From assembly GCA_023139575.1 (NCBI GenBank), contig JAGLNJ010000051.1, positions 5,926-69,925 of the forward strand: a stretch of DNA of 64,000 bases, given 5' to 3'. Position 1 is the first letter of the stretch. The number at the start of each line of letters is the position of its first letter. Of the stretch, positions 6,421-27,126 are shown piece after piece. The notes under the pieces were generated by a model that had not been told where the DNA came from, made no database searches, and saw nothing but the letters and a program-made list of their open reading frames with translations. Both the position numbers and the translations under genes were made by a program. This stretch comes from Candidatus Omnitrophota bacterium (lineage in GTDB: Bacteria; Omnitrophota; Gorgyraeia; Zapsychrales; JANLHA01).

Positions 6421-6455
6421 GCAAAAAGGGCGCATTACTTATTTAGAATGCGCCC
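6421..6455 (-). terminator. Rho-independent terminator closing the tad operon (after tadC)
   Basis: Perfect 9-bp inverted repeat GGGCGCATT-N10-AATGCGCCC (6428-6455). It is followed on the minus strand by TTTTT (plus-strand AAAAA 6423-6427), about 20 nt downstream of the tadC stop. Confidence 0.7.
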
Positions 6456-6477
6456 TTGGATAAAATATCTTATTTTT

Positions 6478-7368
6478 TTATTCTTCTATCTTACTGGTCA
6501 TCTGATCCATTGGATTAGTTTCTAAAAATTGCAGAAAAATCGGCCCCGCAACCAAAATACCAACAGTAGGAAAGATAAAGAATAATAGCGGAACTAAAAG
6601 TTTCAACGGCGCTTTCATAGCCATTTTCTCGCCCCTTCGATAACGCGAAGTACGCATATCTTCCGAAAGCATGTTCAGAGCCTCTGAAACAGACGTTCCC
6701 ATTTTGTCCGCCTGAATAAGCGTTCGGGAAAAAGTAGCCAGTTCCGCAAGATCATATTTAGATGAAAGGTCTTTTAAAGCGTCTCTGCGCGTTTTACCGA
6801 CATTAATCTCCTGAAGCAAAGTGTTGAGCTCACTTACCATGACAGAGGGAGGGGATTTCTCGACAACCCATTTTAACGCCAACATAAAGTCCAAGCCGGC
6901 ATTGACACAAAGACCTAATAAGTCAATGGCGTCCGGCAATTCTTTAACCATAACCCCCTTCACGAAGCGTATCTTTCCCTTCAACCAATATTCGGGAAGC
7001 ATATAGCCAAAGCAAAAGCTCATCAAAAACCAGAAAATCATCATGTCAGGCTTAATCATCGGATAAGAAATGGCCAAAACAAAAATGATGCACACTTCTT
7101 TAATGAAAAAAAATTCTTCCGGCGAAATCGGAAGGTGAGCCACAGACAAATCTTTAACAATTCTCGTTCTCAGCTTGCCGGAGCAAAACGGTTTATTTAT
7201 CAAAGCAATCTTCCTGAATATCGATTGTTTTTTTCCTTTACTATCCCCATCGGAAGAGGCATAACCCAGAGCCTCCAGAGTGGGTCGGCTTTCCCAACCT
7301 AAGGGAAAAAGGCCGAGAATAAAACTGAACCCCGAAAGAAATACCATCGTCAATATAAAAATAATCAT
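6478..7368 (-). CDS. tadC: Tad/Flp pilus assembly inner-membrane protein TadC (GspF/T2SSF domain)
   Basis: 296 aa with multiple TM helices. Central T2SSF-like block ELPDAIDLLGLCVNAGLDF...RRDALKDLSSKY...LIQADKMGTSVSEAL, typical of TadC/CpaH. Confidence 0.8.
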   Translation of the reverse strand: MIIFILTMVFLSGFSFILGLFPLGWESRPTLEALGYASSDGDSKGKKQSIFRKIALINKPFCSGKLRTRIVKDLSVAHLPISPEEFFFIKEVCIIFVLAISYPMIKPDMMIFWFLMSFCFGYMLPEYWLKGKIRFVKGVMVKELPDAIDLLGLCVNAGLDFMLALKWVVEKSPPSVMVSELNTLLQEINVGKTRRDALKDLSSKYDLAELATFSRTLIQADKMGTSVSEALNMLSEDMRTSRYRRGEKMAMKAPLKLLVPLLFFIFPTVGILVAGPIFLQFLETNPMDQMTSKIEE

Positions 7369-7430
7369 GTCTTTCTACCCTTTCATTAACCCCTCTTTGC
7401 TGACAGCTCAGGCGGCTGAGAGCTCGCCTA

Positions 7431-8285
7431 TTAGTAGTCCTTCGACGTGCTGATCTTCCAAATCATAGCGGCGCCGATGATCTCGGAAAATGCCGCATAA
7501 ATCAAAAGAGCCCGTCCATTCTGCGACTGGATCATATGATTAAAAAATGTCGGGTTCGCTCCGTATACAATAAAGAAAAAAGCCACCGGAAGCAATGACA
7601 TAACAACGCCCTGAATTTTACCTTGTATTGTCAACGTGTCAATTTGCCCCTGAACGCGCTTCTGTTCACGAATAACACCCACAATACGAGAAAAGATAGC
7701 GGGTAAATTACCTCCTGTCTCTCTCGCCAGAAGAATGGCTGTTGTCATCTGCTGCAAAGCCGACGACGGCATGCGATTGTATAAATGGTTGAACGCCTCT
7801 TCTAAGGAAACTCCCATTTTATTCTCGCCGAGAACCGTCCCGAACTCTTGATTGATAGGGTCCGGCATTTCTTCGACGACCGCTTCCATGGCCTGAATTA
7901 AACTCAACCCACCTCTAAAAGAACTCGACATAATCATCAAGGCATCAATTAACTGATTATTAAATTTTCTTCTATTGCCCTGCAACAAGGCCTTTGTATA
8001 AAGCCCCGGAAACAAAACACCAAAGGCTATGCCGATAACAATGCTGAAAACGCGCACTTGCGCCGGAGCTATCGCATAGCCGATCGCGCCGCCAACGAGA
8101 GGAGCTAAAAGATATACTTGTGAAATTTTTTGAATCTGCTGACGAGGAATTATCCTGTCCAATTTGTTGGACAATTTTTGGGCTCGCTTTTGACTTAAAC
8201 CCACTGTTTTATTATAGACGGTAGGCACCACAGAATACCCTATTAAGGCCGCGGTACAAAAAACTAAAAATAATGTGATCGCCAT
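7431..8285 (-). CDS. tadB: Tad/Flp pilus assembly inner-membrane protein TadB (GspF/T2SSF domain)
   Basis: 284 aa. T2SSF-like block FRGGLSLIQAMEAVVEEMPDPINQEFGTVLGENKMGVSLEEAFNHL...ARETGGNLPAIF. It sits directly upstream of tadC. Confidence 0.8.
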   Translation of the reverse strand: MAITLFLVFCTAALIGYSVVPTVYNKTVGLSQKRAQKLSNKLDRIIPRQQIQKISQVYLLAPLVGGAIGYAIAPAQVRVFSIVIGIAFGVLFPGLYTKALLQGNRRKFNNQLIDALMIMSSSFRGGLSLIQAMEAVVEEMPDPINQEFGTVLGENKMGVSLEEAFNHLYNRMPSSALQQMTTAILLARETGGNLPAIFSRIVGVIREQKRVQGQIDTLTIQGKIQGVVMSLLPVAFFFIVYGANPTFFNHMIQSQNGRALLIYAAFSEIIGAAMIWKISTSKDY

Positions 8286-8366: not shown

Positions 8367-8879
8367 TTATTCCTTAATACCCCAGCACATATTGCTATTA
8401 CAATTTTCGCTTCTGCAATCTGCTATGCAGATCTGACACTTTGTAGCATATTCATCATGATCTTTCGGCAAATCGCAATCACAATTAGCGCGAAAGCACT
8501 GTGATCCCACCCATATATTCATGGCTCCATCTGCCTGGGCGCAGGTATCACATATCGGTTCTCCGACAGGAATCGGACTACAAGGCGGATCATCAAGCGT
8601 GCAGCAGGGTACCAGCCATCCGGGCATTGTATAAACATTCAGGCCCCCCGTAATCACTACAGAATCATAAAAACATTCTTCCGTCGCGTTCGGATCATAC
8701 TGCTTGCCGTGGCCGAAAGAATTACCGGCATTACGCCATTGACCGGACAAACCTCGTGCTAAATATTTTTGGAAAACAAAAAATGTGCTGGCAATAAAGA
8801 ACATGACAAACATATATTCCAAGGCCGAAACTGCTTTTTTATTGTTTGCATTAGTAAATAATATTTTCTTTTTATTCAT
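8367..8879 (-). CDS. Cysteine-rich Flp/TadE-like pilin-like protein (170 aa, about 18 Cys)
   Basis: N-terminal class-III-signal-like segment KKAVSALEYMFVMFFIASTFFVF followed by YLARGLSGQWR...QYDP, a motif shared with pilin paralogs 4 and 7. The C-terminus is packed with Cys (CCTLDDPPCSP, CDTC, CDCDLP, CQICIADCRSENCNSNMC). Confidence 0.55.
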   Translation of the reverse strand: MNKKKILFTNANNKKAVSALEYMFVMFFIASTFFVFQKYLARGLSGQWRNAGNSFGHGKQYDPNATEECFYDSVVITGGLNVYTMPGWLVPCCTLDDPPCSPIPVGEPICDTCAQADGAMNIWVGSQCFRANCDCDLPKDHDEYATKCQICIADCRSENCNSNMCWGIKE

Positions 8880-8901
8880 CTCTTATTCTTATTCGATTTG
8901 T

Positions 8902-11900
8902 TTAATTGGCGCCGGACAAAAACGCCCCGTCACACGGCACAAATTTTAACCGCATGCCTTGGTTTGCGTATAACATAGAATCACCAACACTCCTTGTCAC
9001 CAAATAGCCAAGCTCACCCATTTCACCCTCATCAAAGAAATACGCCGCGCAACTTTCCTCTACTACCCCGTGAGGCAACAAGTGCTCATGCACATAATTC
9101 CAACAATTAATATACTCAAGCTTTGAAAAACCCAGAGCCATTACCCCCCACTGAGCATCCGTTATAGCATGCGGGAAAGTGGCAATAGAATATTTGCTAT
9201 AATTTAACATAAACGCATAGCCCCACTCTGACCCATCAAGTAATTGTAACGGCCGGCACGCTCCTTCGACGCCAGCAACCTCCCCAGCTGAAAGTTCATC
9301 CGCTGCGGGATTATAATCACGAATCTCCCATAAATCTGAGTCGTCTGGAAACGTGATTACTCCTTGCACCTCTTCCGATTCATCAAACCGGATAACGCGC
9401 ACCTTTACCATACCCTCTGTGGAAACCAATTCATAACAACGGCTCGTCCCCCAATCCTTCGTGTAACTATCCACACGCGGCCACTCGGGATCCGGGCCAC
9501 CAACAGAATCAGGCCCTCCCTCAACAGGCCAATAACCGCAGGCATTATTACACCGTCCGGGAGCCCTTACCTCAACCTTGACAGCATGCCAGAAACCTTT
9601 GGAGCTTCCGTCTGCGCGCAACTCATCATCTTCCAGATCTTCGTCCTGCCACACATAAACGACGACAGATGCCGTTCCTTTTGTGTCCTCATAATTAAAG
9701 CGCGCTTGCACCATGGTTTCCATCGGAGAGTCCTGATCAAAAGGCGCGGGTGACGCCGTATTAAAAGGACTGTTTCCGTCAAGAAAGGCCGTAAAATGCT
9801 TCCATCCGTCATGCAAAATAAGCATGGCCCTTAAAGCTTCTTTCAATCTCGCTTGCAGGAACAGAAATCGTTTTTTAAATTTTGCCACCTGATTTTCCGC
9901 GTTTTTCATACAAGCTTCTGCTGTAGCCAAAAAAGCTCCCGAAGGATTAAAGGATCCTTGTGTCAGTTCCAAGCTCTCCACCAAAGAATCATACCATGTT
10001 GAATCATGCCATAAGGCTACTTCGGCGGCGGTAAACTCAGGCTCAGCAATCAGCCAAGCGCAACTAAAATAATTTTCCGGCAAAACCGTTTCCTCTTCAT
10101 AAGGCTGATCCCAAATCGGAAGCAAATAAGGATAATCAAAGGCCCAGCCGAAAGGCATCGCGGCCGGAGAGCAAAGAGTGATGCAGTCTGCGATCGCCGC
10201 CGGGTCTGGCGGTGGAACCATAAGATCCGGGGTGATATTGAAACATGCGTCAAAGGCAGCTTCATGTGCCGGGTCCGCGGGCCACTGCCATGCAGGCAGC
10301 GTAACAAGCAGCCCGGCCGAAGTGCGGTACTCCTGGGGCAACACTGAATTATTACAATTAGCCCTGCACTCCGCCATATTTGCCGAATTATAGCAAGTAT
10401 CAAACAACGCGCTTGCGACAGGATCCGGTGTTAGTTCATTAAAGTCCGGATCAGTCGCATCTCTTGCAACCAAGACCGCCGGACGGAAAGAGGCGTCACC
10501 CATAGACGGAAGAGGCGTGCCGGGAAAAGTATGGCAACTCCCTAAATTATAAGGCGGTTGTGTCATGGTTAGAGCATTTGTTACCGCATCAAAAAAGATC
10601 GTGTTATACAGTGGATCTGATGGATCATGAAACCAGGCACAACTACCCGGCTCAAGTGACGGTGGTGGTGGATCCTCAAAAACAGGCGGCACAAAGGCCG
10701 GCAATCCGGCACAATAATAATTACATTCAATAACATCCGCTGACACCAGGCATCTCATTATCTCTTCCGACGCTCCCGCGTTGCCGAAATCCATCCCCTG
10801 GAAGAGAATGGCGTCCGCCCCGGGAACCAGACACCGCGGCAATAACAAACAGGCCTCTGCCGCTCCGGCAGAATCCCCGGAAAAAAGAGCGTCAAAACAT
10901 CTTTGAAACTTCTGAGCATTTCCGATCGCGGGCGCGAGACCGCTTAGAGGGTATGTTCTTTCATCATTGACCTGCCAATTCAAACAGCTGACCACATCAA
11001 ACAGGTCTCCTCGAGACGGCTGATCAAACTCATCTGTAACGCTTCTTGTAAACATGGTCGGATCTATTTCGTTATAAACGGCCGCGGGAAAATCATCAAA
11101 AATCCAGTCACCCGCAGCAGGAACATAGTTAAAGCTGTCCGCTTCACCAAGAACAAACCCTATCGTCGGCGTTACATAAGGACATTCATTGACCCCATAT
11201 TCATTGGGGGCTGCTTGTTCCGGCGGGACGCACCAAACATCCATCTCGTTGCAACTGTCGGCAACATAGGGATTCGGCAGCACACCAATACCAAGGTCTT
11301 TAGTGTCCATACCTGCGGGATAAAAGCCCGGATGAGGAAATCCTTCATTAACTCCCATGCCATAAGGAGGGGAAAGATCAAAAGGCGGTGCTTGAGCATA
11401 AATCCAATAAAATATCCTCCACCAAAAACGATATATCTCATAACGCCATACCCATAACGTCCCATCATTTCCTTTTACAAAACTAAAAGGACATGCCCCT
11501 CCCTTAGCTCCCATATCCTCATCCAGGCGCTCTCCTGTATTAACATTTACACAAGGAGCCTCAAGCCAAGAGGATGCTATTTTATACCATTCCTTAGTTG
11601 TTTTTACCAATGCCCGTAAATTCTGGTCCAAAAGTGTTTCTGCATAAGAATAAAATTCACTTAAACCATAGACGATTTCGTCCAAAGAGTCTTCTGGATA
11701 CTCGGCTGGATCAGTCCCTCCGACCCCGCAATCACATGTATACGGCACATCCTGCAGATAAGGAAATCTAAGCCTCCTCTCTTGAGAATACGGGTCTGTG
11801 TGGTCTTCCCATGACGCGTCATCATAACACGCTCGATGTTTCGGGCAGTTTCCTTCATAAGGATACACATCCGAACAGAAACGATCCGCCCCCCTCTTCC

Positions 11901-13716
11901 ATCCCCCCTCACCTAAAGGATCCGCAGCGCAAGTGTCATCGTCGGCAATTAACCCTGCCGGCATCGGGACCTTATCCGCCAGCTGAGGAGGGTCACCCGC
12001 AGCGCCGGTATTGGCTTCGTCCAAACACCAATCGCCGCTGAAAGGAGCGTCACCTAAAATGTTAGGAAGTTCAAGCCGACTATTAATTCCATCGTGATCA
12101 TCATCGGCCATTTCCGGATATATATCAGCTAAAATACATGGCACCCCCGATCTTACATCACAATAAACACATTGATCATCAGTGTAATCTAAATATAATG
12201 GGGACAATTCTGTGCCCCAATCGGCAATTTTATGAAAAAGCTGAAAAATCCCTCCAGCAGGATAATTGTCGTTCAAAAGTCCCGGGCGCAAATCATAATT
12301 CATGGCATAAATCGGTGTTTTGTAATAACCCGAGACGTCATCTAATCTAAAAAGGCCTTCAATGGAACTCCCGACCGTGCTTTCCTGCCGTGTCAAACGC
12401 AGCCTGTCAGGATTGGCCGCATCAAAATAAGCCGGGTCTGTCGGGTTATAACGATAGAGATGGTGCTCATCATCCCGCCCCAGCAACTCTCTAAACGAAT
12501 AAAATCCATTAGTATGGTCTTCATATGCCGAATCGTAAATCTCTTCATATATTTCTCCGGCTTTATCATACGGCGTATTAGCCACACAAAGAGCCGGGTT
12601 CCCGCAAGGGTATTGCGGATCTCCAGGATCGTTACAGCAAGGCGGCATCACCGGAAGATTCTCTTCTCTGCCGTCGAATATAAGCACCCCCAAAATATCT
12701 ACACCAAAATCAGACACACAGCACGGATTACATTCTGAAGGCATGTCCAAAGGGAAGTCCGCAGGGAGGGATGGAAAGTTTCCCGGGCAGCACGGGTGTA
12801 TACCTGCCGAGGTAACACAATCTACCGGGTCTAAGAGTCCCCAGGTAGAAAACTGAGCGTTAAGATCATTACACAAGGCCACGTTCATGCCACTACTCCC
12901 ACAGTCAATATTGCATTTACCCGGATCCGCGTAAAGAAAACATGCCATGGATTGCTGAAAAAACTGAATAGCGTTAACCGGCGGGGCAATTATTGTTCGC
13001 AGTCGGTCTGTATAATAATAGGCAAACCGGGAAACATAATCACTGGCTTCATTCCTGGCAATGGCCGCATTCGTCTCCCAGTTAAGATCCTGATCAATAT
13101 CATGGAGGTCTGGAAAATAAACCTGATCCGTAATCGAATTCTGCAGCCCCATCAAAATCCCCCGCTCAATGAGCATGTCTTCAATAGAAAGGGCTTCTGC
13201 CATCATTTTATTCCATAGAGTCGTAATCCCGGGCTGCACAATTGTTAGTTGGACAACTAAAGAAGCCACAGACAAGATTAGAGCAAGACCCAAACAGACC
13301 AACTTCAGGGCAACGAAAGTCGCTGTCCCCGCGGAGGCGATAGTGATTATTATCGCAATAATGACAATGACAATCGTAAAGATGGCTTTTAAAACACCCG
13401 TCATGCCGCAAATACGCTGACGGCCCCCTAAAACTTCTTGAAATATTCTTTCCCCGTAGCTGGCCATTAAAGAAACCATATGCCCGGCAGATGCATTCGC
13501 CGCCATAACCGCAATGGTCTTGGTCCGTGAAACTCTCCCCATATTCATTACAGCCGCATAAATAATAAGAGCCAGGGCGGCTATAAGAATAAGAACAACG
13601 CCGACTTGGCCAGAGGTGTTTTTTAAAGAAGTTCTGTTTTTTTCTGAAAAGGAAAAAACGCTGTTTTTCCTGAAAACGTTTTGAATATTTTTTCGCAATA
13701 ATCTAAACATTAACAA
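8902..13716 (-). CDS. Giant (1604 aa) cysteine/proline/aspartate-rich TadG-like pilus-associated protein; putative pilus tip or adhesin
   Basis: N-terminus SGQVGVVLILIAALALIIYAAVMNMGRV resembles the Tad N-terminal (TadE/G-like) membrane domain. Two further TM helices follow, then a huge extracytoplasmic region with many CC/CxC motifs (HPCCPGNFP, CNPCCVSDFG, PPCCNDPGDPQYPCGNPALC) and D/P/Y/W-rich segments. It sits inside the tad operon. Confidence 0.6.
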   Translation of the reverse strand: MLMFRLLRKNIQNVFRKNSVFSFSEKNRTSLKNTSGQVGVVLILIAALALIIYAAVMNMGRVSRTKTIAVMAANASAGHMVSLMASYGERIFQEVLGGRQRICGMTGVLKAIFTIVIVIIAIIITIASAGTATFVALKLVCLGLALILSVASLVVQLTIVQPGITTLWNKMMAEALSIEDMLIERGILMGLQNSITDQVYFPDLHDIDQDLNWETNAAIARNEASDYVSRFAYYYTDRLRTIIAPPVNAIQFFQQSMACFLYADPGKCNIDCGSSGMNVALCNDLNAQFSTWGLLDPVDCVTSAGIHPCCPGNFPSLPADFPLDMPSECNPCCVSDFGVDILGVLIFDGREENLPVMPPCCNDPGDPQYPCGNPALCVANTPYDKAGEIYEEIYDSAYEDHTNGFYSFRELLGRDDEHHLYRYNPTDPAYFDAANPDRLRLTRQESTVGSSIEGLFRLDDVSGYYKTPIYAMNYDLRPGLLNDNYPAGGIFQLFHKIADWGTELSPLYLDYTDDQCVYCDVRSGVPCILADIYPEMADDDHDGINSRLELPNILGDAPFSGDWCLDEANTGAAGDPPQLADKVPMPAGLIADDDTCAADPLGEGGWKRGADRFCSDVYPYEGNCPKHRACYDDASWEDHTDPYSQERRLRFPYLQDVPYTCDCGVGGTDPAEYPEDSLDEIVYGLSEFYSYAETLLDQNLRALVKTTKEWYKIASSWLEAPCVNVNTGERLDEDMGAKGGACPFSFVKGNDGTLWVWRYEIYRFWWRIFYWIYAQAPPFDLSPPYGMGVNEGFPHPGFYPAGMDTKDLGIGVLPNPYVADSCNEMDVWCVPPEQAAPNEYGVNECPYVTPTIGFVLGEADSFNYVPAAGDWIFDDFPAAVYNEIDPTMFTRSVTDEFDQPSRGDLFDVVSCLNWQVNDERTYPLSGLAPAIGNAQKFQRCFDALFSGDSAGAAEACLLLPRCLVPGADAILFQGMDFGNAGASEEIMRCLVSADVIECNYYCAGLPAFVPPVFEDPPPPSLEPGSCAWFHDPSDPLYNTIFFDAVTNALTMTQPPYNLGSCHTFPGTPLPSMGDASFRPAVLVARDATDPDFNELTPDPVASALFDTCYNSANMAECRANCNNSVLPQEYRTSAGLLVTLPAWQWPADPAHEAAFDACFNITPDLMVPPPDPAAIADCITLCSPAAMPFGWAFDYPYLLPIWDQPYEEETVLPENYFSCAWLIAEPEFTAAEVALWHDSTWYDSLVESLELTQGSFNPSGAFLATAEACMKNAENQVAKFKKRFLFLQARLKEALRAMLILHDGWKHFTAFLDGNSPFNTASPAPFDQDSPMETMVQARFNYEDTKGTASVVVYVWQDEDLEDDELRADGSSKGFWHAVKVEVRAPGRCNNACGYWPVEGGPDSVGGPDPEWPRVDSYTKDWGTSRCYELVSTEGMVKVRVIRFDESEEVQGVITFPDDSDLWEIRDYNPAADELSAGEVAGVEGACRPLQLLDGSEWGYAFMLNYSKYSIATFPHAITDAQWGVMALGFSKLEYINCWNYVHEHLLPHGVVEESCAAYFFDEGEMGELGYLVTRSVGDSMLYANQGMRLKFVPCDGAFLSGAN

Positions 13717-15587: not shown

Positions 15588-15614
15588 TTTTATATTAACT
15601 TCTCGGGTTGCTCT

Positions 15615-16807: not shown

Positions 16808-16853
16808 ATTTAACACATTAAACATTCCTTTTACTTAAACTAGGGCGATGAAA

Positions 16854-18308: not shown

Positions 18309-18526
18309 CTAGTGTGTTCTGTCTGTATTATCTTGTGTTATAGCTGTTTTAGAGTAAAAGTACCCTTGGTTGAACCGTATATAAAAAAGCCTCATGGCTT
18401 CTCCTTAGCTTAGTTACTTTATTTCACAAAACTTTACTTCGGGTGAATAAATTATAACATATATCTAAGATAACTGTCAAGGCGATACGCTCAAATAATC
18501 GTAGAAATAACAAAAATATATAAAAA

Positions 18527-20416
18527 TCATATAATGCCCAATAAAAGTTTTTTTCCTTCCAACATAATTTTTTGCTCACTAACCCTTCTTACCGCAAAAT
18601 TTAATTTTTCTATTTTCTCCCTTGGCAAGCTGTCTCTTTTAAACGCTATTTTTATGTAGTTTGCTGTTTCTTGGAAATGTCCCGGCAAAGCATAAAACCC
18701 GCTCAGCATTTCTTCCCTTGTCAATGCGGCGCATGAAAGAGGGAAGTACCTGTATTGGCAAAAAATATTTAATTGGTCCAGCAGGGTTTGCAGAATTTCA
18801 TTAAAATTATAAGAACTTGAAATAAAACGAGTTAAGTCATAATCTAAACTTATCTGTTGCTCATAGAAGGCTTTCTTTTCTTCAAATGCTTTTTTGATGG
18901 CCCCTTCTTCCCTTCCCGCATTCTGCAAATATCCCTTGAACCCTTCAGATGCGGCTGAGGCCTGTAATATAATGCCGAGAAGCGGATCCGCAAATGCTTG
19001 GCTATCATCAATATTATTAGTAATTACCGCCAGAAAAGGTTCTTTTTCAACATTTTTTGAAACAAAATAAACCTTTACCATCGTAGCACTGTCACTCATA
19101 ACAAAAGAGTTTAGATGGATCGAGCTTTCTCTATAATAATACTTCTCGTCTCCTTGAATTTCATGATAATGCTGTGACAGTTTGCAGGCCTTTAGTATCA
19201 TTTGAAACGAAGTCTGACCCGGCAACAAACCACAGACCAACGCCTTTTTTTTGCCAGGAATAAAAGGAAAAGAGGAAATTTCTTCATTTTTAAAATTGCG
19301 TAATACAATTTTGTCCAATCTGACTTTTGATGTTTTGTCTACCGCTTGGCACAAATGTCCAAAAATATCAATATTGCCATCATTGATAAAATCAATATTC
19401 CATGTTTGGACATTCTCAATAATTTCAGAATTGATCCGAGACACTGCCGAGTACAGTGAGGAGGCTAATCCTATCGAAGGCGGTTCTTTCCAAATTGACG
19501 TAAAAGACCCATCTAAATTAATTTGCTTTCCATCGCTTAAATAAACACTTATTATATTAACTTCCTTAAATAGTTGGGGCAACTCAATGGCAACCGCCAG
19601 CTTCAACTTGTTAAAATCGCATTCCTCTTTAATAGCCTCAATGGCAGACAAAGCAGCTTTGTTGTACAAAACATTATTTAATCTCCAAATTCCAGAAAAA
19701 GCACTTTGCTCAATATTTTGTGTATCCCTTAACCCAAACATTTCCAGAAATAATAAAATATCTGGATTGTTTAATCTGACGGATTTTGCCCACTCAAAAT
19801 TACTGGAAAACAATTGATTCAGCAGAGAGTTTTCTGTTAATTCATTAATTGCAGCCTTCAAAAAAACACTTCCCAAATTTGCCAAAGGAACAGATTTCTC
19901 TTCTTTTGTTTCCTGAATGGACATTAAGCCGGCTTTGTCCTTAGTAGCCTTTTCTCTAAGAGTTTCCTTTGGTAATTTTATTTTGGACATTCTAGACATT
20001 TCAGGTGGAGCCGTATCCTCCATAATAAGCGTCCGCTTCTCTTGCGGAAACAGTTCTTTAATTTTTGACTCCGGGATTTGAAATTTTTTGGAAGATTTTT
20101 TTGCTACCGACCTCCTCCCAACCGGGCTACTCAGACTGGAACTTTTGAAGATAGCGTTGATAGAGGATTTAGAAACTTTAATGTCAAAATTCTTTTGAAC
20201 AGTATCGACAAGCCTTCTGCAGCTTATATCAGGTTCTTTAGTTTTACAAGCTACAATAAAGACTACAACTTCTTTTTTTAATTTATGTATAACACCCATA
20301 GTTTTACAAAATGGACAATTGAACTTTCTAAGTATATCACAAAACAAGGCTTGGAAAAAGCGCCTTAGTTGATTTTTCATCTGCCTTAACTTTAATGTCC
20401 AGAAAAATATCAACAT
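18527..20416 (-). CDS. Hypothetical protein (629 aa), soluble, embedded in the tad locus; possible N-terminal HTH-like segment
   Basis: Long ORF with no recognisable catalytic motifs. The N-terminal region ...VACKTKEPDISCRRLVDTVQKNFDIKVSKSSINAIF looks HTH-like. It is bounded by its own terminator. Confidence 0.5.
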   Translation of the reverse strand: MLIFFWTLKLRQMKNQLRRFFQALFCDILRKFNCPFCKTMGVIHKLKKEVVVFIVACKTKEPDISCRRLVDTVQKNFDIKVSKSSINAIFKSSSLSSPVGRRSVAKKSSKKFQIPESKIKELFPQEKRTLIMEDTAPPEMSRMSKIKLPKETLREKATKDKAGLMSIQETKEEKSVPLANLGSVFLKAAINELTENSLLNQLFSSNFEWAKSVRLNNPDILLFLEMFGLRDTQNIEQSAFSGIWRLNNVLYNKAALSAIEAIKEECDFNKLKLAVAIELPQLFKEVNIISVYLSDGKQINLDGSFTSIWKEPPSIGLASSLYSAVSRINSEIIENVQTWNIDFINDGNIDIFGHLCQAVDKTSKVRLDKIVLRNFKNEEISSFPFIPGKKKALVCGLLPGQTSFQMILKACKLSQHYHEIQGDEKYYYRESSIHLNSFVMSDSATMVKVYFVSKNVEKEPFLAVITNNIDDSQAFADPLLGIILQASAASEGFKGYLQNAGREEGAIKKAFEEKKAFYEQQISLDYDLTRFISSSYNFNEILQTLLDQLNIFCQYRYFPLSCAALTREEMLSGFYALPGHFQETANYIKIAFKRDSLPREKIEKLNFAVRRVSEQKIMLEGKKLLLGII

Positions 20417-20476: not shown

Positions 20477-20734
20477 TTGGAAAAAGGATTCTTTATGCTT
20501 AAATGTCCCTATTGCTGCGAAGAACTAACATCCGAAGTTAATCGCTGCGTTCACTGCTCCCAATTTCTCATTGATGATATTATTCATTCAGATTTTCCCA
20601 GCCTGGACAAAAAGAAATGTGTTTTTTGCGGCAAAAAAATACTAAGTCGAGCTAAAATATGCAAGCACTGCCACAAATGGCTTGATGAATTAGATCAAGC
20701 GGTTCGTGATGTAGATCCTGATGATTTGGTTTGA
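20477..20734 (+). CDS. Small double zinc-ribbon protein (85 aa, four CxxC pairs)
   Basis: CPYCC...CVHC...CVFC...CKHC. It is the only plus-strand gene inside the minus-strand tad block. Confidence 0.45.
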   Translation: MEKGFFMLKCPYCCEELTSEVNRCVHCSQFLIDDIIHSDFPSLDKKKCVFCGKKILSRAKICKHCHKWLDELDQAVRDVDPDDLV

Positions 20735-20749: not shown

Positions 20750-21094
20750 CTATGCTTCTTTTATCAACTCATCCCCTATTTGAGTTTGCGTTTCATCAAT
20801 CGTCCCCTCTGGCAATTCAATACAATAATTTGCGCGAATAAAATAGGGACCCATCCTATAAGGTTTGATCCTTTTTACAAGACCGATAACTTTATTATTT
20901 TTGTCTACAAAAATAACATCGATTGTGAAACGCATAAAAAGCATGTGGATGGAGCGGCATTGTGTAATGATAAAGCCGTGCCCTTGCGGTAAATTGTCGC
21001 GCCCTAATAAACCAACAAGACGTGATAGCGCTGTATCCGCCAGCTCAGTTTGCTGAGAGATCGTGGTGTTTCGTGTTTTATTGATTATTTTCAC
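20750..21094 (-). CDS. DUF192 (COG1430) family protein
   Basis: LSRLVGLLGRDNLPQGHGFII..CRSIHMLFMRFTIDVIFVD...CIELPEGT matches the DUF192 pattern (GLMGR...GMLF...IHMFFMRFPIDVIF...ELPAG). Its start overlaps the ATPase stop by 4 nt. Confidence 0.65.
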   Translation of the reverse strand: MKIINKTRNTTISQQTELADTALSRLVGLLGRDNLPQGHGFIITQCRSIHMLFMRFTIDVIFVDKNNKVIGLVKRIKPYRMGPYFIRANYCIELPEGTIDETQTQIGDELIKEA

Positions 21095-23262
21095 AAGGCA
21101 GGAACTGTTTCCGTAAAGATTTTTTTCTCTAACGAAAGACCTATACGGTTAAAATCTTCCATGAACTTTGGGACATATCCTGTGGGTTTAAAGTCGCCGA
21201 GTATTTTCCCGTCTTCTGTTTTCCTTTTTTGGTCAAAGACAAAGACATCGCGCAAATCAAGCTGATGATCCTTTTCTATTCCGGCAACCTCGGTAATTCC
21301 TGTTATCTTACGAGTCCCGTCAGAGGTTCGGGCAACATGAACAATAATATCAATGGCTGAGGAAACCATTTCATTGATAGCCCGGATAGGCAATTCGATA
21401 CCGCTTAAGAGGATCATTGAACTCATACGAACCAAAACATCATGGCATGAATTCGCGTGCAGCGTCGTCATAGAGCCGTCATGACCCGTGTTCATAGCCT
21501 GAAGCATATCCAGGACCTCACGGCCGCGGCACTCCCCGATGATAATGCGGTCCGGGCGCATACGCAGCGAATTAATAAACAGATCTCGAATAGTGACCTC
21601 GCCGCGACCTTCAACGTTTGCCGGGCGGGATTCCAGTCGTCCCCAATGGGTTTTCTTTAACCGTAATTCAGCGGCGTCTTCTATCGATATAATTCTTTCA
21701 TTGTCAGGGATGAAATGAGAGAGAACATTTAAAAGCGTCGTTTTCCCGGCGCCGGTTCCTCCAGAAACGATAATATTTTTTCTTCCAACCACACAGGCCT
21801 CAAGAAAAGTAGCCATGTTTTTAGAAAAACTTTTGTACTTAAGCAGCAAGTCGGCCACGCTCAAGCGCTCAACACCAAATTTTCGAATGGTAATCATGGG
21901 GCCGGTCAAAGAAAGAGGGGGAATAATAGCGTTGAAGCGTGAGCCGTCCGGAAGACGAGCGTCGACCATCGGAACAGATTCGTCAATACGTCTACCGAGA
22001 GGAGCGATAATACGGTCAATAATCGCGCGCATCTGCTGATCAGAAACAAACTTCCTGTTAGTTAAAATAATCTTGCCGCCCTTTTCTATATACAGATCGT
22101 TTTTGCTGTTAACCATAATATCGGTAACCTCCGGATCCGCAAGAAACTCTTCCAAAGCCCCCAATCCTAAAGCCTCATCAACGATCTCCTTAACAATCCT
22201 CGCCCGCTCTTCATGCGAAGAAATCAGCGCCCCTTTTTCTTCCATAAGGAGGTTGCTGACAATTTTCTTGGCGGACTCTTTCAGCTCTAAGGCTTTTTGG
22301 GGATCCCCCAACATCTCCGGCGTCAAGTCTTCCACATGCAGGCGATCCACAAGCTTCTCGTGAATCTTCTTTTTAAGAGCGACAATCTCATCTTCCTCTT
22401 TCACAAAACCATCGCCACCGGCAGGCATGTTCTGTGATGATATGCCGAATTTCTGCCAGAATTCACCCGGCTTATCCATTCCTTCGGTCATGCGAACCTT
22501 AGCCACTTCCGCGCCCTGCACAAAAAGGTCTTCCTTTTTGAGGTCTGCGATCATTTGCTTAAAGGCTTCCGCTACCTTCGAACGAGGGCTGTCGATAACA
22601 CAGGGGACGCCTCGATTCAAAGCCATACCCACGGATCTTCCATCGGAAGGAATCCTCGCAAATATTTCGCAGCCTAATACATTGCGGACCTCCTGCCAGG
22701 CAACGCCTCCCCGGCTTTCCGATCGGTTTAAGACCAGCTTGATCATCTTAAAAGGGAAATGCAGGCTTTGCAGCACCTCTAGACACCATTTGATTTGATA
22801 TACAGCTAAAACATCAGGCGTGGCCACCAAAAATATCAAGTTGGAATGATCCAAAGCAGTCAAAAGGGTTTCGCTAAAAGCCTTCCCCGCGTCTATGATG
22901 ATATAATCATAGATCGTAGAGACCGTCTTGAAAAAAGGTTTGATGTTTTCTGCTGTAATATGACCGATCTGTTTAGAATGAATAACGGCCGGCAAAAAAT
23001 CCAGACCGCAGGAATGAGAAATGACAAATTTCTTAATAATGTCCGGACTGTCGGCCTTCTCTATTTCCGGCAAAAGATGAACCAGGGCGTGGCGGGGAAC
23101 AAGGCTTAACATTCTGGACATGTCTTGCCCTGCTTGAAAATCCAAATCAAGAAGCAACACCCTTTTACCCGACACGGCTAAAGAGGTTGCCAAGTTAACG
23201 GCGGCAAAAGTCTTTCCAACACCGCCCTTATTACTAAATATAGTTATGGTTCGAGCTTCCAT
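21091..23262 (-). CDS. Fusion protein: N-terminal ParA/MinD-type (TadZ/CpaE-like) ATPase domain + C-terminal CpaF/TadA secretion ATPase
   Basis: Residues 1-250 begin ITIFSNKGGVGKTFAAVNLATSLA (deviant Walker A KGGxGKT, MinD/ParA fold). Residues ~380-723 are CpaF-like: IVSGGTGAGKTTLLN (Walker A), GRLESRPANVEGRGEVTIRDLFINSLRMRPDRIIIGECRG, LQAMNTGHDGSMTTLHANS. Confidence 0.8.
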   Translation of the reverse strand: MEARTITIFSNKGGVGKTFAAVNLATSLAVSGKRVLLLDLDFQAGQDMSRMLSLVPRHALVHLLPEIEKADSPDIIKKFVISHSCGLDFLPAVIHSKQIGHITAENIKPFFKTVSTIYDYIIIDAGKAFSETLLTALDHSNLIFLVATPDVLAVYQIKWCLEVLQSLHFPFKMIKLVLNRSESRGGVAWQEVRNVLGCEIFARIPSDGRSVGMALNRGVPCVIDSPRSKVAEAFKQMIADLKKEDLFVQGAEVAKVRMTEGMDKPGEFWQKFGISSQNMPAGGDGFVKEEDEIVALKKKIHEKLVDRLHVEDLTPEMLGDPQKALELKESAKKIVSNLLMEEKGALISSHEERARIVKEIVDEALGLGALEEFLADPEVTDIMVNSKNDLYIEKGGKIILTNRKFVSDQQMRAIIDRIIAPLGRRIDESVPMVDARLPDGSRFNAIIPPLSLTGPMITIRKFGVERLSVADLLLKYKSFSKNMATFLEACVVGRKNIIVSGGTGAGKTTLLNVLSHFIPDNERIISIEDAAELRLKKTHWGRLESRPANVEGRGEVTIRDLFINSLRMRPDRIIIGECRGREVLDMLQAMNTGHDGSMTTLHANSCHDVLVRMSSMILLSGIELPIRAINEMVSSAIDIIVHVARTSDGTRKITGITEVAGIEKDHQLDLRDVFVFDQKRKTEDGKILGDFKPTGYVPKFMEDFNRIGLSLEKKIFTETVPAL

Positions 23263-23389: not shown

Positions 23390-25270
23390 CTATATCTTCT
23401 TGATTGTTTCAATCGTCGGAGAACATTCTAAACCCAGCTCATCTAAAATGGCTTCTTGACTATAGACAATGGGAATCGTAACAACCAGTTCTTCCAGCTC
23501 TACTTCCGAAGGAAAAGGATCAAAAGGCGCCAAAATCTGCGCAGTATTTATAGCGTCTTTATCAAAAATATCATACCCGGAAGATTCTTTTATTGTCGCG
23601 TCCATTAAGGATCCATCACTCAATATGGTTAAAGAAAGCTTAACTGTTCCTTGCCATCCTTCTTCTTTAGCCTTATATGGAAATGATATCGTTCGCGAAA
23701 TATTTTGTTGTATCGTCTGTACATACTCTGTGATAGCTTTAGAAATGTTTTCATCATCAATGATTTCTTCCGCTAAAGCTGTTTCTTCGTCGGTAACAAC
23801 GTCTATGGCTTCTTCACCCATTGTTTCGGGCTCTTTACCTTCTTCAGCGGCGGCTGTCTTATCCATTCTCTCTTCCAAAAAGGACGCTATCTCCTCTTCG
23901 TATTCATCAACAGCGGGTTCCTCAATGACGATCTCACCTTCTTCCAGTTTTTCGACGTCTTCTGATAAATCTGCCAACTCTTCCTCTAGTTCATATAACA
24001 TCCCGTCATCTTCTACAGCTTTTTCTTCCGACGGCAAAGACATCTGCCGAAAAATACGCGGAGTCAATGTAATAACAACTTCTTGCTCTTGATTTGCCGT
24101 AGGTGTTATCTTAGATCTGAACAGCGCTCCGACAATTGGTATGGCGCTGATAAAGGGAACTCGTTTAACCTCTTCGCTTTCATTGTGCTTAATCAATCCG
24201 GCAATAACAACCGTCTGCCCGTCATTCAACAGCAGTCGGGTATCGGCAGATCGTGTCGTGAAGGCAACATCATCGCCTACAGCATTAGCATTATCAATAT
24301 CCCTGATGGCAACAGACAAAAGGATATCGATTTTTCCATTTTTCACTTCCGGCGTTACCGTCAAATCAATGCCGTACTCCTTAAAAGTCACATTTTCTTG
24401 AACGCTACCAGCCACATTACCCGTAGTCGTCGTTCGAATCGGAATTTCCCCGCCGACTAAGAAAGAAGCGTCTTCACCATCGACCACAACAATGCTGGGC
24501 TTGGACAAAATTCGCCCTTTCCCTTCCTTAATAAGGGCTTTTACGGTAGCCTGTATTATTGAAGTACGATTAATGTCGCCGATTTTGAACAAATTTTCTA
24601 CATTGTTTCCATCAAACTCCGGCAAGGTCTCTTGATAAACAAGATTTAGAGAATCCGCACTATCTGTTGCCCAATCGAATCCTAATTCTTTCGTAAGCGT
24701 TGTGTTCAACTCAGAAATCTGTACGTCAATCTGAATAAGGTCGCCTTCTACTCTAACCATATCAATGACTTGCTCACCAAAATCGTCAAGGATGAGCTCC
24801 AGCATTTCCTGCTCGCTTTTAATAACAGTCCCTGTAGCTACGACCTTTCCTTCATATGGGTTTGGCGCCAATTTAACGTCCTTGATTTCAGCCGCATCCA
24901 GCAGGCTCTGTAAACGGGAAACAATTGACCCCATGTCTTCTTCGAAAACGCGAGCAATTATAGTTCTTTTCCCGTATTCATCCCAGATGAAAATCGGCGT
25001 CTCCCCAATAGCCTGACCGACAAGAAGCACTTCATTGACATCCGCATTAGCGATATCTACAATGCCCGGTTGGCTGATGGCAATCCTTGTAAGAGAATAC
25101 ACTTTTAAAGTGACCAGATCCCCTTGATAAAGGAAGACATCTCTTTTTTCCAAAGTATCAATAACGTCTTGCGTTTGGGCATGAGCGTTAAACGGAAACA
25201 CTGCCACTGTCATAACAATAAAAACGATTTGTAAAAATTTTTTGCTTTTTGTTTTTTTTGTGATCATCAT
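23390..25270 (-). CDS. cpaC: CpaC/RcpA-type secretin with a polyacidic linker and a C-terminal TonB_C-like domain
   Basis: Signal peptide. Secretin core GRILSKPSIVVVDGEDASFLVGGEIPI...VPFISAIPIVGALFRS. Then a ~90-aa Glu-rich linker (EEELADLSEDVEKLEEGEIVIEEPAVDEYEEE...). Then ISFPYKAKEEGWQGTVKLSLTILSDGSLMDATIKESSGYDIFDKDAINTAQILAPFDPFP, matching the TonB C-terminal pattern (YP..A...G.eG.V.v.f.I..DG.v.d..v..SSG...lD.aAl.A....F.P). Confidence 0.8.
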   Translation of the reverse strand: MMITKKTKSKKFLQIVFIVMTVAVFPFNAHAQTQDVIDTLEKRDVFLYQGDLVTLKVYSLTRIAISQPGIVDIANADVNEVLLVGQAIGETPIFIWDEYGKRTIIARVFEEDMGSIVSRLQSLLDAAEIKDVKLAPNPYEGKVVATGTVIKSEQEMLELILDDFGEQVIDMVRVEGDLIQIDVQISELNTTLTKELGFDWATDSADSLNLVYQETLPEFDGNNVENLFKIGDINRTSIIQATVKALIKEGKGRILSKPSIVVVDGEDASFLVGGEIPIRTTTTGNVAGSVQENVTFKEYGIDLTVTPEVKNGKIDILLSVAIRDIDNANAVGDDVAFTTRSADTRLLLNDGQTVVIAGLIKHNESEEVKRVPFISAIPIVGALFRSKITPTANQEQEVVITLTPRIFRQMSLPSEEKAVEDDGMLYELEEELADLSEDVEKLEEGEIVIEEPAVDEYEEEIASFLEERMDKTAAAEEGKEPETMGEEAIDVVTDEETALAEEIIDDENISKAITEYVQTIQQNISRTISFPYKAKEEGWQGTVKLSLTILSDGSLMDATIKESSGYDIFDKDAINTAQILAPFDPFPSEVELEELVVTIPIVYSQEAILDELGLECSPTIETIKKI

Positions 25271-25346
25271 ATTTACTCCCTAAACTTCCAGTTAACCTCA
25301 TAAAAAGTGAATAACCATAGCATACCTTATTCTTAACCGTTAACCT

Positions 25347-26144
25347 CTAATTTCTAACGCCACCTCTATAAATATCAATAAAAGTGGTTGGAGCGTCTCC
25401 GCCTGTTGTAACCGCCTCTAAAGGCATTTGAGTGTGTGGAACCAATAATTCCGTTCCTTGTTTTTCAAAAACATATTCTGATAAAGCTCCCCAAGAGGCT
25501 GCCTGCATAATTTCTGTTTCTGTTTCAGCAGGGGCTCTTAAAATCAATTGCATTTTTCCGTTTTTTTCAATAAATGACATAAGGCTGGCTTCTTCCGGCG
25601 TCAAGGCAAAGGTTATATTTAATGACCTGGCTTCTTGTTGCTTTTCATATCCTCCCGGAGCCTGCAAATTTGTCCCCACCGCTAAAATCTGGGCATTTTG
25701 GAAGACCATTGAAGTAATCGTGTTTTTGCCTGTCTTGTGTTGAATCGGTATTTCCATATGCGCCAAAACATCAACATAATCTCCAGGATTGATAAGGCCT
25801 CCGACCGCCGATAGAGAGTCTATCATAACCGTATACGCTCTCTTACCCGCAGGAGTACGTAAAGCCAATGAAGATTTTGGCACTGAGGGCGTCTGGGATT
25901 GAGAATCTTGCCCGGAACCAGCTATCACAACCTGACGGCTAGCTAATTGTTTGATTTCTTTACGCAAGGTTTCTAAGTCTCGCTGTAAAGGTTTGATCTG
26001 TTTGGTTTCATATTCTTGAGAAAGCTTGGCTGTTGCCTTTTTGATATTTCCTTCAATATGATTCCCTGTAAGAATAGCCGCAACCGCACCTAGCCCCACC
26101 GCACATGCAATAATAGCAAACTGTCTTTTGGCTTCTAAATTCAT
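25347..26144 (-). CDS. cpaB: Flp pilus assembly protein CpaB/RcpC (SAF domain)
   Basis: N-terminal TM anchor. YTVMIDSLSAVGGLINPGDYVDVLAHMEIP...FQNAQILAVG is typical of CpaB. It lies immediately upstream of the secretin. Confidence 0.75.
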   Translation of the reverse strand: MNLEAKRQFAIIACAVGLGAVAAILTGNHIEGNIKKATAKLSQEYETKQIKPLQRDLETLRKEIKQLASRQVVIAGSGQDSQSQTPSVPKSSLALRTPAGKRAYTVMIDSLSAVGGLINPGDYVDVLAHMEIPIQHKTGKNTITSMVFQNAQILAVGTNLQAPGGYEKQQEARSLNITFALTPEEASLMSFIEKNGKMQLILRAPAETETEIMQAASWGALSEYVFEKQGTELLVPHTQMPLEAVTTGGDAPTTFIDIYRGGVRN

Positions 26145-26148
26145 ATAC

Positions 26149-27126
26149 CTACTCCTCTAATAGTTTATCGTTAATATTCACGACCGTTTTATTTCGAAGC
26201 TCTTGAAGAGTTTCGTTGATTGTCTGTCTCTGCTTAAAAATCGTCAAACCTTCAACAATTTGCTCTTTCACGTCCTCAAAAGCCTTCTGCTCTCCACCTT
26301 TTTTCTCTTCCAGTTTAACAATATAAAAACCTTCCGGCCCTTTGAATACAGCGCTAACTTCGCCTGTTTCTAAAGCAGCGACGACTTTTCTCATTTTAGG
26401 GAAATCAAAAATAGCTTTGAACCCCATATCTCCTTTTTTCCAGGCAGACTTTGCCTTAGAGTGGGTCTTCACCATTTCTTGAAAATCTACGTCCTTATAT
26501 AGCTCAATGCGGATACTTTTTGCCGTTTCTTCATCTTTCACAACAATTTCCCGAACGCGCCATTCAACAGGATCAACAAATTCCGTTTTATTGTTTTCGT
26601 AATATCCCTCAGCTTCTTCTTCTGTCGCTTTTGCTTCTTTTACGATCTGGTCAGCCATTTCGCGAACGATAAGGGTGCGGCGGAACTCTTCCACAGCATC
26701 AACAATATCTTTTTTTTCTGCTATCCCGGTTTTTTCAGCCTCATGAACTATTAGTTGCTGATTGATAAGCTCTTCTAAAACCAGCTTGTTCTGATCAACA
26801 TTCTTTGTATCATAATCGGGCACCAGCTCTTTAAGAGCTTTAAGCCGTTCATTAAATTCTTCTATAGAAATCGCCCAACTGCCTACTGAGGCTAAGACAT
26901 TTTTTGCCATCGGCTTTGAGGCTTGATTAAATTTTTTTGATTTTATACCGGGAGGGTTGGTATTTGCCTGAGAAACTTTATTGCTTTGTGCCACTTCCGG
27001 GGCTGGTGGTTTTTTCTTGCCCTTTAGCTTATCGGTTAGCTCTGTAATCTTATCGCAACCTTGTGTGCTTGCCAGAATTAAGGTAAAAACACAAAAAAAA
27101 CCAATTTTTTGTTTAAATGCTGTCAC
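26149..27126 (-). CDS. PpiC-type peptidyl-prolyl cis-trans isomerase lipoprotein (PrsA/SurA-like)
   Basis: Lipobox LILASTQGC. Parvulin-like region ...WRVREIVVKDEETAKSI...GDMGF...FKGPEGFYIVKLEEKKG. It is the first gene of the operon, 4 nt before cpaB. Confidence 0.65.
   Translation of the reverse strand: MTAFKQKIGFFCVFTLILASTQGCDKITELTDKLKGKKKPPAPEVAQSNKVSQANTNPPGIKSKKFNQASKPMAKNVLASVGSWAISIEEFNERLKALKELVPDYDTKNVDQNKLVLEELINQQLIVHEAEKTGIAEKKDIVDAVEEFRRTLIVREMADQIVKEAKATEEEAEGYYENNKTEFVDPVEWRVREIVVKDEETAKSIRIELYKDVDFQEMVKTHSKAKSAWKKGDMGFKAIFDFPKMRKVVAALETGEVSAVFKGPEGFYIVKLEEKKGGEQKAFEDVKEQIVEGLTIFKQRQTINETLQELRNKTVVNINDKLLEE

Follow-up and report, generated by a model that had tools for sequence, protein, structure and literature searches.

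What kind of machine is encoded by the gene block of some 20 kb that lies directly upstream of a giant gene in a Candidatus Omnitrophota bacterium (assembly GCA_023139575.1), and what would it do there? Omnitrophota, ultra-small bacteria that occur widely and remain uncultured, are suspected predators or parasites, and this locus together with its giant-gene neighbour provides the main genomic clues to their attachment to other cells. We analyzed the block within a stretch of 64,000 nucleotides of contig JAGLNJ010000051.1 (positions 5,926 to 69,925 of the forward strand; hereafter the window). Judged from its genes, the locus is very probably a Tad (type IVc) pilus system in an Omnitrophota version, directly upstream of the giant gene, and it is another genome's copy of the published, phylum-wide Omnitrophota locus that precedes giant genes. 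It is no new kind of system; the analysis sharpens the published picture, a matter of specialist interest, by adding the assignment to the Tad class rather than to the type II secretion systems (T2SS), a fixed orthologous pilin set, a gradient of divergence, a conserved hairpin, a helix-turn-helix (HTH) protein and an ATPase fusion shared with Bdellovibrionota.

The open reading frames (ORFs) of the locus run in series on the minus strand from 27126 down to 6478, and every gene named in a preliminary description of this DNA is present there in the ORF listing. The contiguous single-strand block that it described holds for the minus-strand genes, but not as one uninterrupted operon, because a plus-strand gene of 79 codons (20495-20734) interrupts the series. 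Profile hidden Markov model (HMM) searches recovered its peptidyl-prolyl isomerase (PPIase), CpaB, secretin, ParA-CpaF ATPase, DUF192 and two T2SSF calls, with the T2SSF, T2SSE and secretin domains in place. The envelope set thus identified comprises a secretin, CpaB, TadB/TadC and a ParA::TadA ATPase, with the PPIase and DUF192 proteins as accessories:

26149 to 27126, minus strand: periplasmic PPIase, probable lipoprotein with a signal-like N-terminus (...ASTQGC); matches to Rotamase_2 (3e-16) and SurA_N
25347 to 26144, minus strand: CpaB/RcpC; RcpC (3e-23), NCBIfam TIGR03177 at 87.7 bits against a cutoff of 71
23390 to 25270, minus strand: secretin with an RcpA/CpaC-like N-domain, an acidic linker and a C-terminal TonB_C domain; Secretin (3.5e-41), T2SS-T3SS_pil_N (4e-8)
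21091 to 23262, minus strand: TadZ/CpaE-like ParA fused to a TadA/CpaF ATPase, 723 residues; AAA_31/ParA at residues 4-240, T2SSE at 366-645 (1e-57)
20750 to 21094, minus strand: DUF192 protein; Pfam DUF192 (5e-19)
7431 to 8285, minus strand: TadB, 284 residues, single T2SSF domain (3.8e-18); orthologues 63-67% identical
6478 to 7368, minus strand: TadC, 296 residues, single T2SSF domain (5.8e-14); orthologues 62-72% identical

CpaB has one N-terminal transmembrane segment. The secretin starts with a signal peptide and carries TonB_C at residues 529-603 (1e-15), where NCBIfam tonB_Cterm also scored above its cutoff. The ATPase scored 325 bits with the TadA family model TIGR03819, compared with 38 for GspE, 35 for PilB and 46 for PilT; the equivalog cutoff of TIGR03819 is 373, and the GspE models, at 38-48 bits, stayed far from their cutoffs of more than 600. 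Because the ATPase is thus of the TadA type (325 bits versus 38 for GspE), we assigned the locus to Tad (type IVc) and not to the T2SS. The exact ATPase and TadC proteins recur on metagenome contigs from a single project, and NCBI annotates the former as [quoted passage not shown] Walker A is intact in both halves (KGGVGKT and GGTGAGKTT), as are Walker B and the His box, and the fused ParA part lacks the receiver-like N-terminal domain of free-standing TadZ. The 120 best-scoring homologues listed were 66-78% identical over 94-100% of the query, and all but two of them measured 686-737 residues.

The name of the best NCBIfam model, "TadA family conjugal transfer-associated ATPase," and the scores of the VirB11 and TrbB models on the same protein would also accommodate a pilus for DNA transfer or uptake, conjugation- or competence-like. 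We consider this extremely improbable. No relaxase, coupling protein, ComEC/ComEA or other transfer gene was found in scans of the locus and window, the matches all lie under equivalog cutoffs and their similarity is that of the common TadA/VirB11 ATPase clade, and the locus sits on the chromosome beside oriC and is kept throughout the phylum.

A Tad assignment calls for Flp-type prepilins, and the downstream half of the locus encodes a run of candidates, eleven proteins with Flp/TadE/TadG-type N-termini. Eight of these are Flp-like (f1 to f7 and the Cys-rich c170; lengths of f1 to f7 are from the likely true starts):

17936 to 18100, minus strand: f1, Flp pilin, precursor of 54 residues (mature form about 42), leader ...KSKAG/QNFIEY; Flp_Fap 1.7e-4, 21.8 bits against a threshold of 32.2
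17668 to 17874, minus strand: f2, Flp-like, 68 residues; Class_IIIsignal 7.8e-6, above cutoff; orthologues 55-58% identical
17234 to 17611, minus strand: f3, Flp-like, 125 residues, KKA/QQTAEY; orthologues 60-62% identical
16854 to 17174, minus strand: f4, Flp-like, 106 residues, MKG/QSTLEY; strong Shine-Dalgarno sequence AAGGAGGA; orthologues 68-70% identical
16327 to 16698, minus strand: f5, pilin-like, 123 residues, degenerate site without E-Y (NKNG/QSLAIQH) and a transmembrane segment; positional orthologues 25-39% identical
15968 to 16318, minus strand: f6, Flp-like, 116 residues, KKA/QTVLEY; orthologues 30-40% identical
15615 to 15944, minus strand: f7, Flp-like, 109 residues, KMG/QSASEY; orthologues 37-45% identical
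8367 to 8879, minus strand: c170, Cys-rich Flp-like pilin, 170 residues, KKA/VSALEY; orthologues of 106-197 residues, 29-34% identical

The products of f1 to f7 (18100-15615) and of the 170-codon ORF share a short basic leader, a [G/A]-Q-x-x-x-E-Y-type site and then a hydrophobic helix, with individual deviations in f5 and c170. A six-frame regular-expression scan of the 64 kb found the site [G/A]-Q-x-x-x-E-[Y/L] eight times, always on the minus strand and always between 13988 and 18067; chance does not account for eight prepilin motifs confined to one block. The f1 protein is of classical Flp size, has a good Shine-Dalgarno sequence, and its orthologues (50-52 residues, 67% identical) also give weak Flp_Fap matches. 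Shine-Dalgarno sequences are strong for f1 to f4 but not for f5 and f6. A motif RGIQGRW..GDQYDP is common to f7, f4 and c170. No cysteine occurs in f1 to f7; c170 has 14 (8.2%), and the 1604-residue protein described below has 55 (3.4%), so that the two proteins called Cys-rich at the outset are so by count.

The remaining three candidates form a TadE/TadF/TadG-like trio between f7 and c170:

14049 to 15587, minus strand: p512, large TadE/TadF-like (KilL-like) putative minor pilin, 512 residues, A-Q-x-x-x-E-L; assigned from motif, gene order and a structure model
13728 to 14039, minus strand: p103, small TadE-like (KilM-like) putative minor pilin, 103 residues, NKA/QVALEL and a transmembrane segment; no Pfam match
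8902 to 13710, minus strand: g1604, giant Cys-rich TadG/KilN-like protein, 1602-1604 residues, SG/QVGVVLILIAALALI without Glu; candidate tip or adhesin module

The AlphaFold2 (AF2) model of p512 (predicted local distance difference test, pLDDT, 77; predicted template modeling score, pTM, 0.75) is pilin-like, its beta-rich head preceded by an N-terminal helix of 58 residues; the family of p512 has 375 representatives at 50% clustering. Orthologues of p103, 33-38% identical, read ..GQVSLEF.. and ..AQVTMEF.. at the site. In g1604, G-Q and a hydrophobic helix without Glu are followed by a conserved hydrophobic hairpin. Only 15 homologues of this protein were detectable in the word-indexed database, at about 30% identity and with large indels, compared with more than 100, nearly all full-length, for the ATPase; 11 of its cysteines are invariant and 9 nearly invariant across the 15. 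Profile Tad PF13400 matched one of the 15 weakly (E 0.014), and a profile search of PDB sequences with the families of g1604, p512 and the 590-residue HTH protein (see below) gave no match.

The same locus type has been described twice in the literature under different labels. West-Roberts et al. (2023; bioRxiv 10.1101/2023.11.21.568195) reported a conserved, phylum-wide "secretion system" upstream of giant genes, composed of gspD/E/F homologues, rcpC, a Rotamase_2 PPIase and many small class-III-signal genes, with N-terminal C39 domains in the giant proteins. Seymour et al. (2023; PMC10066038) found that V. archaeovorus expresses a Tad complex in co-culture, recorded TadBC and RcpA in 74 of 116 Velamenicoccia species, and saw TadB and TadC group with Bdellovibrionales. 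This type of locus has been linked in print to attachment to prey or host cells, and a 2026 preprint places secretion or pilus genes beside 13 of 14 giants. By its published description the V. archaeovorus LiM locus (CP019384.1:12382-29832), from the same phylum, has the same component list with nothing essential different, and it likewise lies near the chromosome start, where it immediately precedes a giant gene whose product has a C39 domain at its N-terminus.

The label of West-Roberts et al. would make the locus T2SS-like, with a short pseudopilus, built from the many pilin-like proteins, that drives either hydrolases or processed portions of the giant protein through the secretin to the outside. 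Its retention next to the giant gene would suit such a role, as would the presence of one small pilin beside many "minor" pilin-like proteins, the arrangement of a T2SS pseudopilus; the best NCBIfam match of the secretin is GspD, although far under the cutoff, and the C39 peptidase domain of the giant protein could cut it into exportable pieces (bioRxiv 10.1101/2023.11.21.568195). On sequence grounds, however, the T2SS label fails on four counts: the ATPase belongs to the TadA clade, the platform consists of two single-domain proteins, TadB and TadC, and not of one double-domain GspF, the leaders are of the Flp type (G/QxxxEY), and Pfam and NCBIfam profile searches of the locus proteins found neither GspC, GspL or GspM nor an N_methyl-type pseudopilin signal. 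CpaB and the CpaC-type N-domain of the secretin also speak against it, and we regard this alternative as quite unlikely. Tad systems can still secrete; it is T2SS membership that is excluded, not a secretion function.

For the Tad assignment, then, domains, the TadA-type ATPase, the Flp-like motif and the literature agree with the CpaB-CpaC-CpaE-CpaF-TadB-TadC logic with extra pilins that had been proposed from the letters. As in Aggregatibacter tad and Caulobacter cpa, the order of functions is CpaB-secretin-CpaE-CpaF-TadB-TadC and the prepilins are of the Flp G/XXXXEY type. Compared with these canonical systems, the Omnitrophota locus has eight Flp-like genes instead of one to three, adds the PPIase, DUF192 and secretin-TonB_C, is split by the HTH gene and a divergent zinc-ribbon gene, and has no TadV/CpaA, TadD/CpaD or RcpB.

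To place the locus among its relatives, we compared it with Omnitrophota contigs that carry homologues of g1604 or of the ATPase (L011, L012/L013, L015 and L016; five other genomes). The order of the 5' half is shared: (PPIase, CpaB,) secretin with TonB_C, ParA::T2SSE, DUF192, the 79-residue zinc-ribbon gene on the opposite strand, and a 558- to 827-residue counterpart of the HTH protein. The pilin block follows, with products of about 51, 68, 123-133, 106-107, 123-132, 109-129 and 105-116 residues, and then proteins of 444-552, 87-109, 1049-1604 and 106-197 residues, two T2SSF proteins, a gap of 0.8-1.8 kb and a giant gene. The secretin-TonB_C fusion is kept in L011, L012, L015 and L016, the PPIase at the same position in L015 and L016, and the DUF192 gene directly after the ATPase gene in all five other loci examined. 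The synteny comparison therefore recovered the same gene order in other Omnitrophota contigs, and a Bdellovibrio Tad locus shares the core.

In BLASTP, the best match of each window protein was its positional counterpart, which makes the eleven pilin-like genes, the seven pilins among them, an ancient set of fixed composition rather than a group of recent paralogues. Identity to the counterparts falls into two classes. The conserved class comprises the ATPase (72-75%), TadB/C (62-72%) and f1 to f4 (55-70%), and the divergent class f5 to f7 (25-45%), p512 (30-32%), p103 (33-38%), g1604 (about 30%) and c170 (29-34%). The domain fusions, pilin number and giant Cys-rich components that the preliminary description had singled out are real, but they are fixed, phylum-wide and published in outline rather than particular to this locus.

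By analogy, this gradient fits a variable pilus tip, as in the Kil system of Myxococcus. The Kil Tad pilus has an Flp major pilin, and its KilL/M/N proteins are TadE/F/G-like trios (extended, short and large) whose tips, variable and rich in disulfides, are required for killing on contact; tips based on TadG have been proposed to be general (Herrou et al. 2025, PMC12075869). Like Kil in M. xanthus (PMC8460266, PMC12075869), the locus would be a Tad-type machine of a presumed predator, with a small Flp major pilin, extra Flp minor pilins and an extended, a short and a very large TadE/F/G-like protein, Cys-rich and lineage-variable. No sequence homology to the Kil tips turned up, no direct comparison having been made. 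The tip set here is single and encoded within the locus, against four scattered ones in Myxococcus; its large subunit, at 1604 residues, is much bigger and has two additional hydrophobic helices; and in place of the type III secretion (T3SS*) partner, none being known here, there are the adjoining giant gene, a secretin that carries TonB_C and a TadZ fused to TadA.

The preliminary description gave the locus an extent of about 20 kb; the genes within that extent stand, but its boundary was drawn one gene short and left out the giant gene directly downstream:

1 to 5590, minus strand: giant gene, of which the N-terminal 1,863 residues lie in the window; the ORF leaves the window and encodes at least 13,703 residues on the 81 kb source contig, where it reaches the contig end

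Its product has a Peptidase_C39 domain at residues 221-307 with the catalytic-Cys context ..LNCG.., and no further Pfam domain in its first 3,033 residues. Giant genes stand at the same position in L011, L012 and L013, with products of at least 12,290 and at least 7,148-8,031 residues. Locus and giant gene are thus adjacent in every complete locus examined (the window, L011 and L012/L013), and the intergenic DNA is not conserved. This conserved adjacency suggests that the Tad machine and the giant protein act together in cell-cell contact.

The proximity could also be that of an ordinary adhesive Tad pilus for surfaces or biofilms that shares a near-oriC location with the giant gene and no function. 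The locus lies about 10 kb from oriC in window coordinates, its core gene set is canonical Tad, terminators and a spacer of about 900 bp precede the giant gene, a half-locus on a further contig (L014) has no giant gene nearby, and the upstream context in L015 differs. We nevertheless judge this explanation unlikely, since the adjacency recurs in every complete locus examined although the DNA between is unconserved, and is phylum-wide (bioRxiv 10.1101/2023.11.21.568195); the rapid evolution of the Cys-rich tip candidates would suit recognition of specific partners, and the fused ATPase is common to Bdellovibrionota predators. The specialised attachment apparatus that had been proposed is probably the right description.

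Several observations weigh against the reading of the locus as a Tad pilus that works with its giant neighbour. No Peptidase_A24 prepilin peptidase was found among the scanned window ORFs of at least 109 residues, a scan that took in every long ORF except antisense overlaps, or among the called genes within 10 kb of the locus in L011, L012, L015 and L016. In Pfam, Flp_Fap stayed below threshold for the pilins and Class_IIIsignal passed its cutoff for f2 only, NCBIfam gave no match for the pilin-like proteins, and neither TadE PF07811 nor Tad PF13400 matched the 512-, 103- or 1604-residue proteins of the window; the original pilin and pseudopilin labels are hence backed by the N-terminal motifs but not by these models. 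The pseudopilin and tip assignments accordingly stay putative, drawn as they are from gene order, motifs at the N-terminus and a single AF2 model. After its pilin-like helix, g1604 has two extra hydrophobic helices, which could hold it in the membrane and not at a pilus tip. Finally, the spacer of about 900 bp and the terminators part the locus from the giant gene, and because these terminators separate the two, their conserved adjacency is the sole basis for a functional link.

With these points in mind, the Tad reading would work as follows. The upstream half of the locus would build the envelope machine. The conserved f1 to f4, with a consensus promoter and strong Shine-Dalgarno sequences, would supply abundant fibre subunits, f1 being the likeliest major pilin, and a conserved hairpin after f4 would limit or stabilise their transcript. 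The more weakly expressed and fast-diverging f5 to f7, p512, p103, g1604 and c170 probably prime assembly and form a disulfide-rich tip, which, by analogy with the KilL/M/N tips, would contact a partner or prey cell. The HTH and zinc-ribbon proteins encoded between the halves probably regulate the pilin block, prepilins would have to be processed by a peptidase encoded outside the window, and the machine probably acts in predation or attachment between cells jointly with the giant membrane protein that bears the C39 domain. A bolder version is that the Tad machine and its neighbour of more than 13,700 residues form one cell-contact organelle, in which a heteropolymeric Flp fibre of eight kinds of Flp-like subunit, fixed as a set, carries a fast-evolving, disulfide-rich tip (512 + 103 + 1604 residues, perhaps with the 170-residue protein) that selects prey or host, and the giant protein is recruited to the same envelope site or acts through it, possibly docked via the unusual TonB_C domain of the secretin; we offer this tentatively, as a possibility more doubtful than not. 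That the cytoplasm-facing C39 domain of the giant protein replaces the missing TadV prepilin peptidase is very unlikely. Concrete targets for work on V. archaeovorus enrichments are f1 as the fibre subunit and the 1604-residue protein as an adhesin.

The ParA-CpaF fusion noted from the outset is present, but it does not serve as a distinctive trait, being common to Bdellovibrionota and others. We scanned GTDB species genomes with the ATPase; the best 80 matches were colinear, came from many phyla and were mostly generic CpaF, with only two Omnitrophota loci (L017 and L018) among them and V. archaeovorus not. Where ORF continuity was checked, a single ParA::TadA ORF of about 720-770 residues occurs in both Omnitrophota loci, in Bdellovibrio sp. 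HCB288 (L047, 9929-12151), in other Bdellovibrionota/Oligoflexia (L025, L031), in a "Deltaproteobacteria" metagenome-assembled genome (MAG; L020) and in an Elusimicrobiales MAG (L056). The fusion is not unique to Omnitrophota, because the single ORF is found in Bdellovibrionota, Elusimicrobiales and "Deltaproteobacteria" too. In the checked loci of Firmicutes, Actinomycetota, Chloroflexota, Acidobacteriota, Nitrospirales, Planctomycetaceae, Rugamonas and Rhodobacteraceae, cpaE and cpaF are separate. By its ORF structure, the fused TadZ-TadA ATPase links the Omnitrophota locus to the Tad systems of Bdellovibrionota, of which Bdellovibrio sp. HCB288 is one with the same single-ORF fusion. The latter locus contains CpaB, secretin, ParA::T2SSE and TadB by Pfam, without DUF192 and with a secretin that lacks TonB_C. 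Among these few loci, only the Omnitrophota ones showed a DUF192 gene, a PPIase gene and the fusion of secretin to TonB_C.

Two candidate regulatory genes separate the halves of the locus, and several signals of transcription lie around the pilin block:

20495 to 20734, plus strand: 79-residue double zinc-ribbon protein with two CxxC...CxxC pairs, divergent, between the DUF192 and HTH genes
18527 to 20299, minus strand: cytoplasmic HTH protein, 590 residues from M40 (listed as 629), candidate regulator
18451 to 18480, minus strand: predicted sigma-70 promoter TTGACA-18-TATAAT with TG, 12 of 12 consensus positions, the best in 20 kb
18288 to 18310, minus strand: leader hairpin with a U-run, -11.7 kcal/mol, z = -4.7, after a 28-codon upstream ORF and before f1
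16764 to 16808, minus strand: hairpin of 20 or more bp after f4, -28.2 kcal/mol, z = -7.4
6421 to 6455, minus strand: intrinsic terminator after tadC, -18.5 kcal/mol, z = -4.3, with a U-run

The start of the HTH protein is most likely M40 (position 20299), where M-G is invariant in 35 homologues; these carry only Omnitrophota or metagenome source names. The protein has no transmembrane segment, and its AF2 model (pLDDT 77, pTM 0.70) comprises a three-helix N-terminal domain, a disordered linker and an alpha/beta domain of about 450 residues. We read it, tentatively, as conserved and DNA-binding, and as a possible regulator of the pilin promoter next to its gene. Low GC, a weak HTH_32 match and a Foldseek top hit to Tn5 transposase (E 0.1) had raised an inserted transposase as an identity for the 629-codon ORF; an insertion was ruled out by the positional orthologue in every locus examined. 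The zinc-ribbon gene has the same place and orientation in L001, L011 and L012, with weak DZR matches in L011 and L012; its counterpart in L015 encodes 109 residues with no Pfam match, and none was called in L016.

The hairpin at 18310-18288 had been ascribed to the 629-codon gene as its own terminator, an assignment that we reversed: it follows the promoter at 18480-18451 and the upstream ORF, and as such belongs to the pilin leader. Promoter, upstream ORF and hairpin ahead of f1 have an attenuator-like layout, and this DNA is not conserved in the other loci. ORFs of 71-78 codons called there between the HTH gene and f1 were neither pilin-like nor conserved. The terminator proposed after tadC was confirmed by the folding values given above.

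The hairpin after f4 is a different case. Its core, ATGGCTTAC...GTAAGCCAT, lies in the equivalent gap of L011 (about 7058-7117), L012 (about 6997-7056), L015 (about 17076-17135) and L016 (about 16420-16479), with compensatory changes at 6 of 22 pairs. As predicted from sequence and fold, it is likely to be a terminator, attenuator or mRNA stabiliser that separates highly from weakly expressed pilin genes.

In the spacer between tadC and the giant gene, a promoter-like TTGTCA-16-TATACT with TG (6066-6039, minus strand) is followed about 120 nucleotides on by a hairpin with a U-run (5921-5893, -14 kcal/mol); this element (5893-6066) could be a small RNA or a leader. Neither this intergenic region nor that between the HTH gene and f1 matched Rfam or was conserved as DNA with L011 or L012.

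Two rearrangements were seen among the relatives. The half-locus in L014 (7098-17054) consists of pilin-like genes followed by genes for 511-, 76-, 1620- and 118-residue proteins and two T2SSF genes, amid genes for a sigma factor with RskA, PALP enzymes and RND efflux; the 10 kb around it contain neither an ATPase nor a secretin nor a giant gene. This half-locus could represent either a rearranged copy or a second cluster for tip and platform. In L011, the c170 orthologue and tadB are separated by an inserted gene (15189-15932, opposite strand) for a DDE transposase of the IS1595 family.

Upstream, the locus is preceded by genes for a CN-hydrolase and a glutathione S-transferase (GST) and by tRNA-Glu, gyrA, gyrB, dnaN and dnaA; L016 keeps this gyrB-gyrA-GST-CN_hydrolase context. 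The probable oriC lies at about 38200-39000, where the GC skew changes sign (at about 38-39 kb) and GC drops to 31%, with dnaA, dnaN, gyrB and gyrA to the left on the minus strand and yidC, parA and parB to the right on the plus strand. Almost every window gene points in the direction of replication, a pattern also reported from complete genomes of Omnitrophota, and the remainder of the window consists of housekeeping genes. A 6S RNA gene (55066-55221, plus strand) scored 65.6 bits with Rfam. West-Roberts et al. noted PilZ genes downstream of giant genes (bioRxiv 10.1101/2023.11.21.568195); in the window, a stand-alone PilZ-domain protein is encoded at 59870-60259 on the plus strand, among housekeeping genes of the other replichore.

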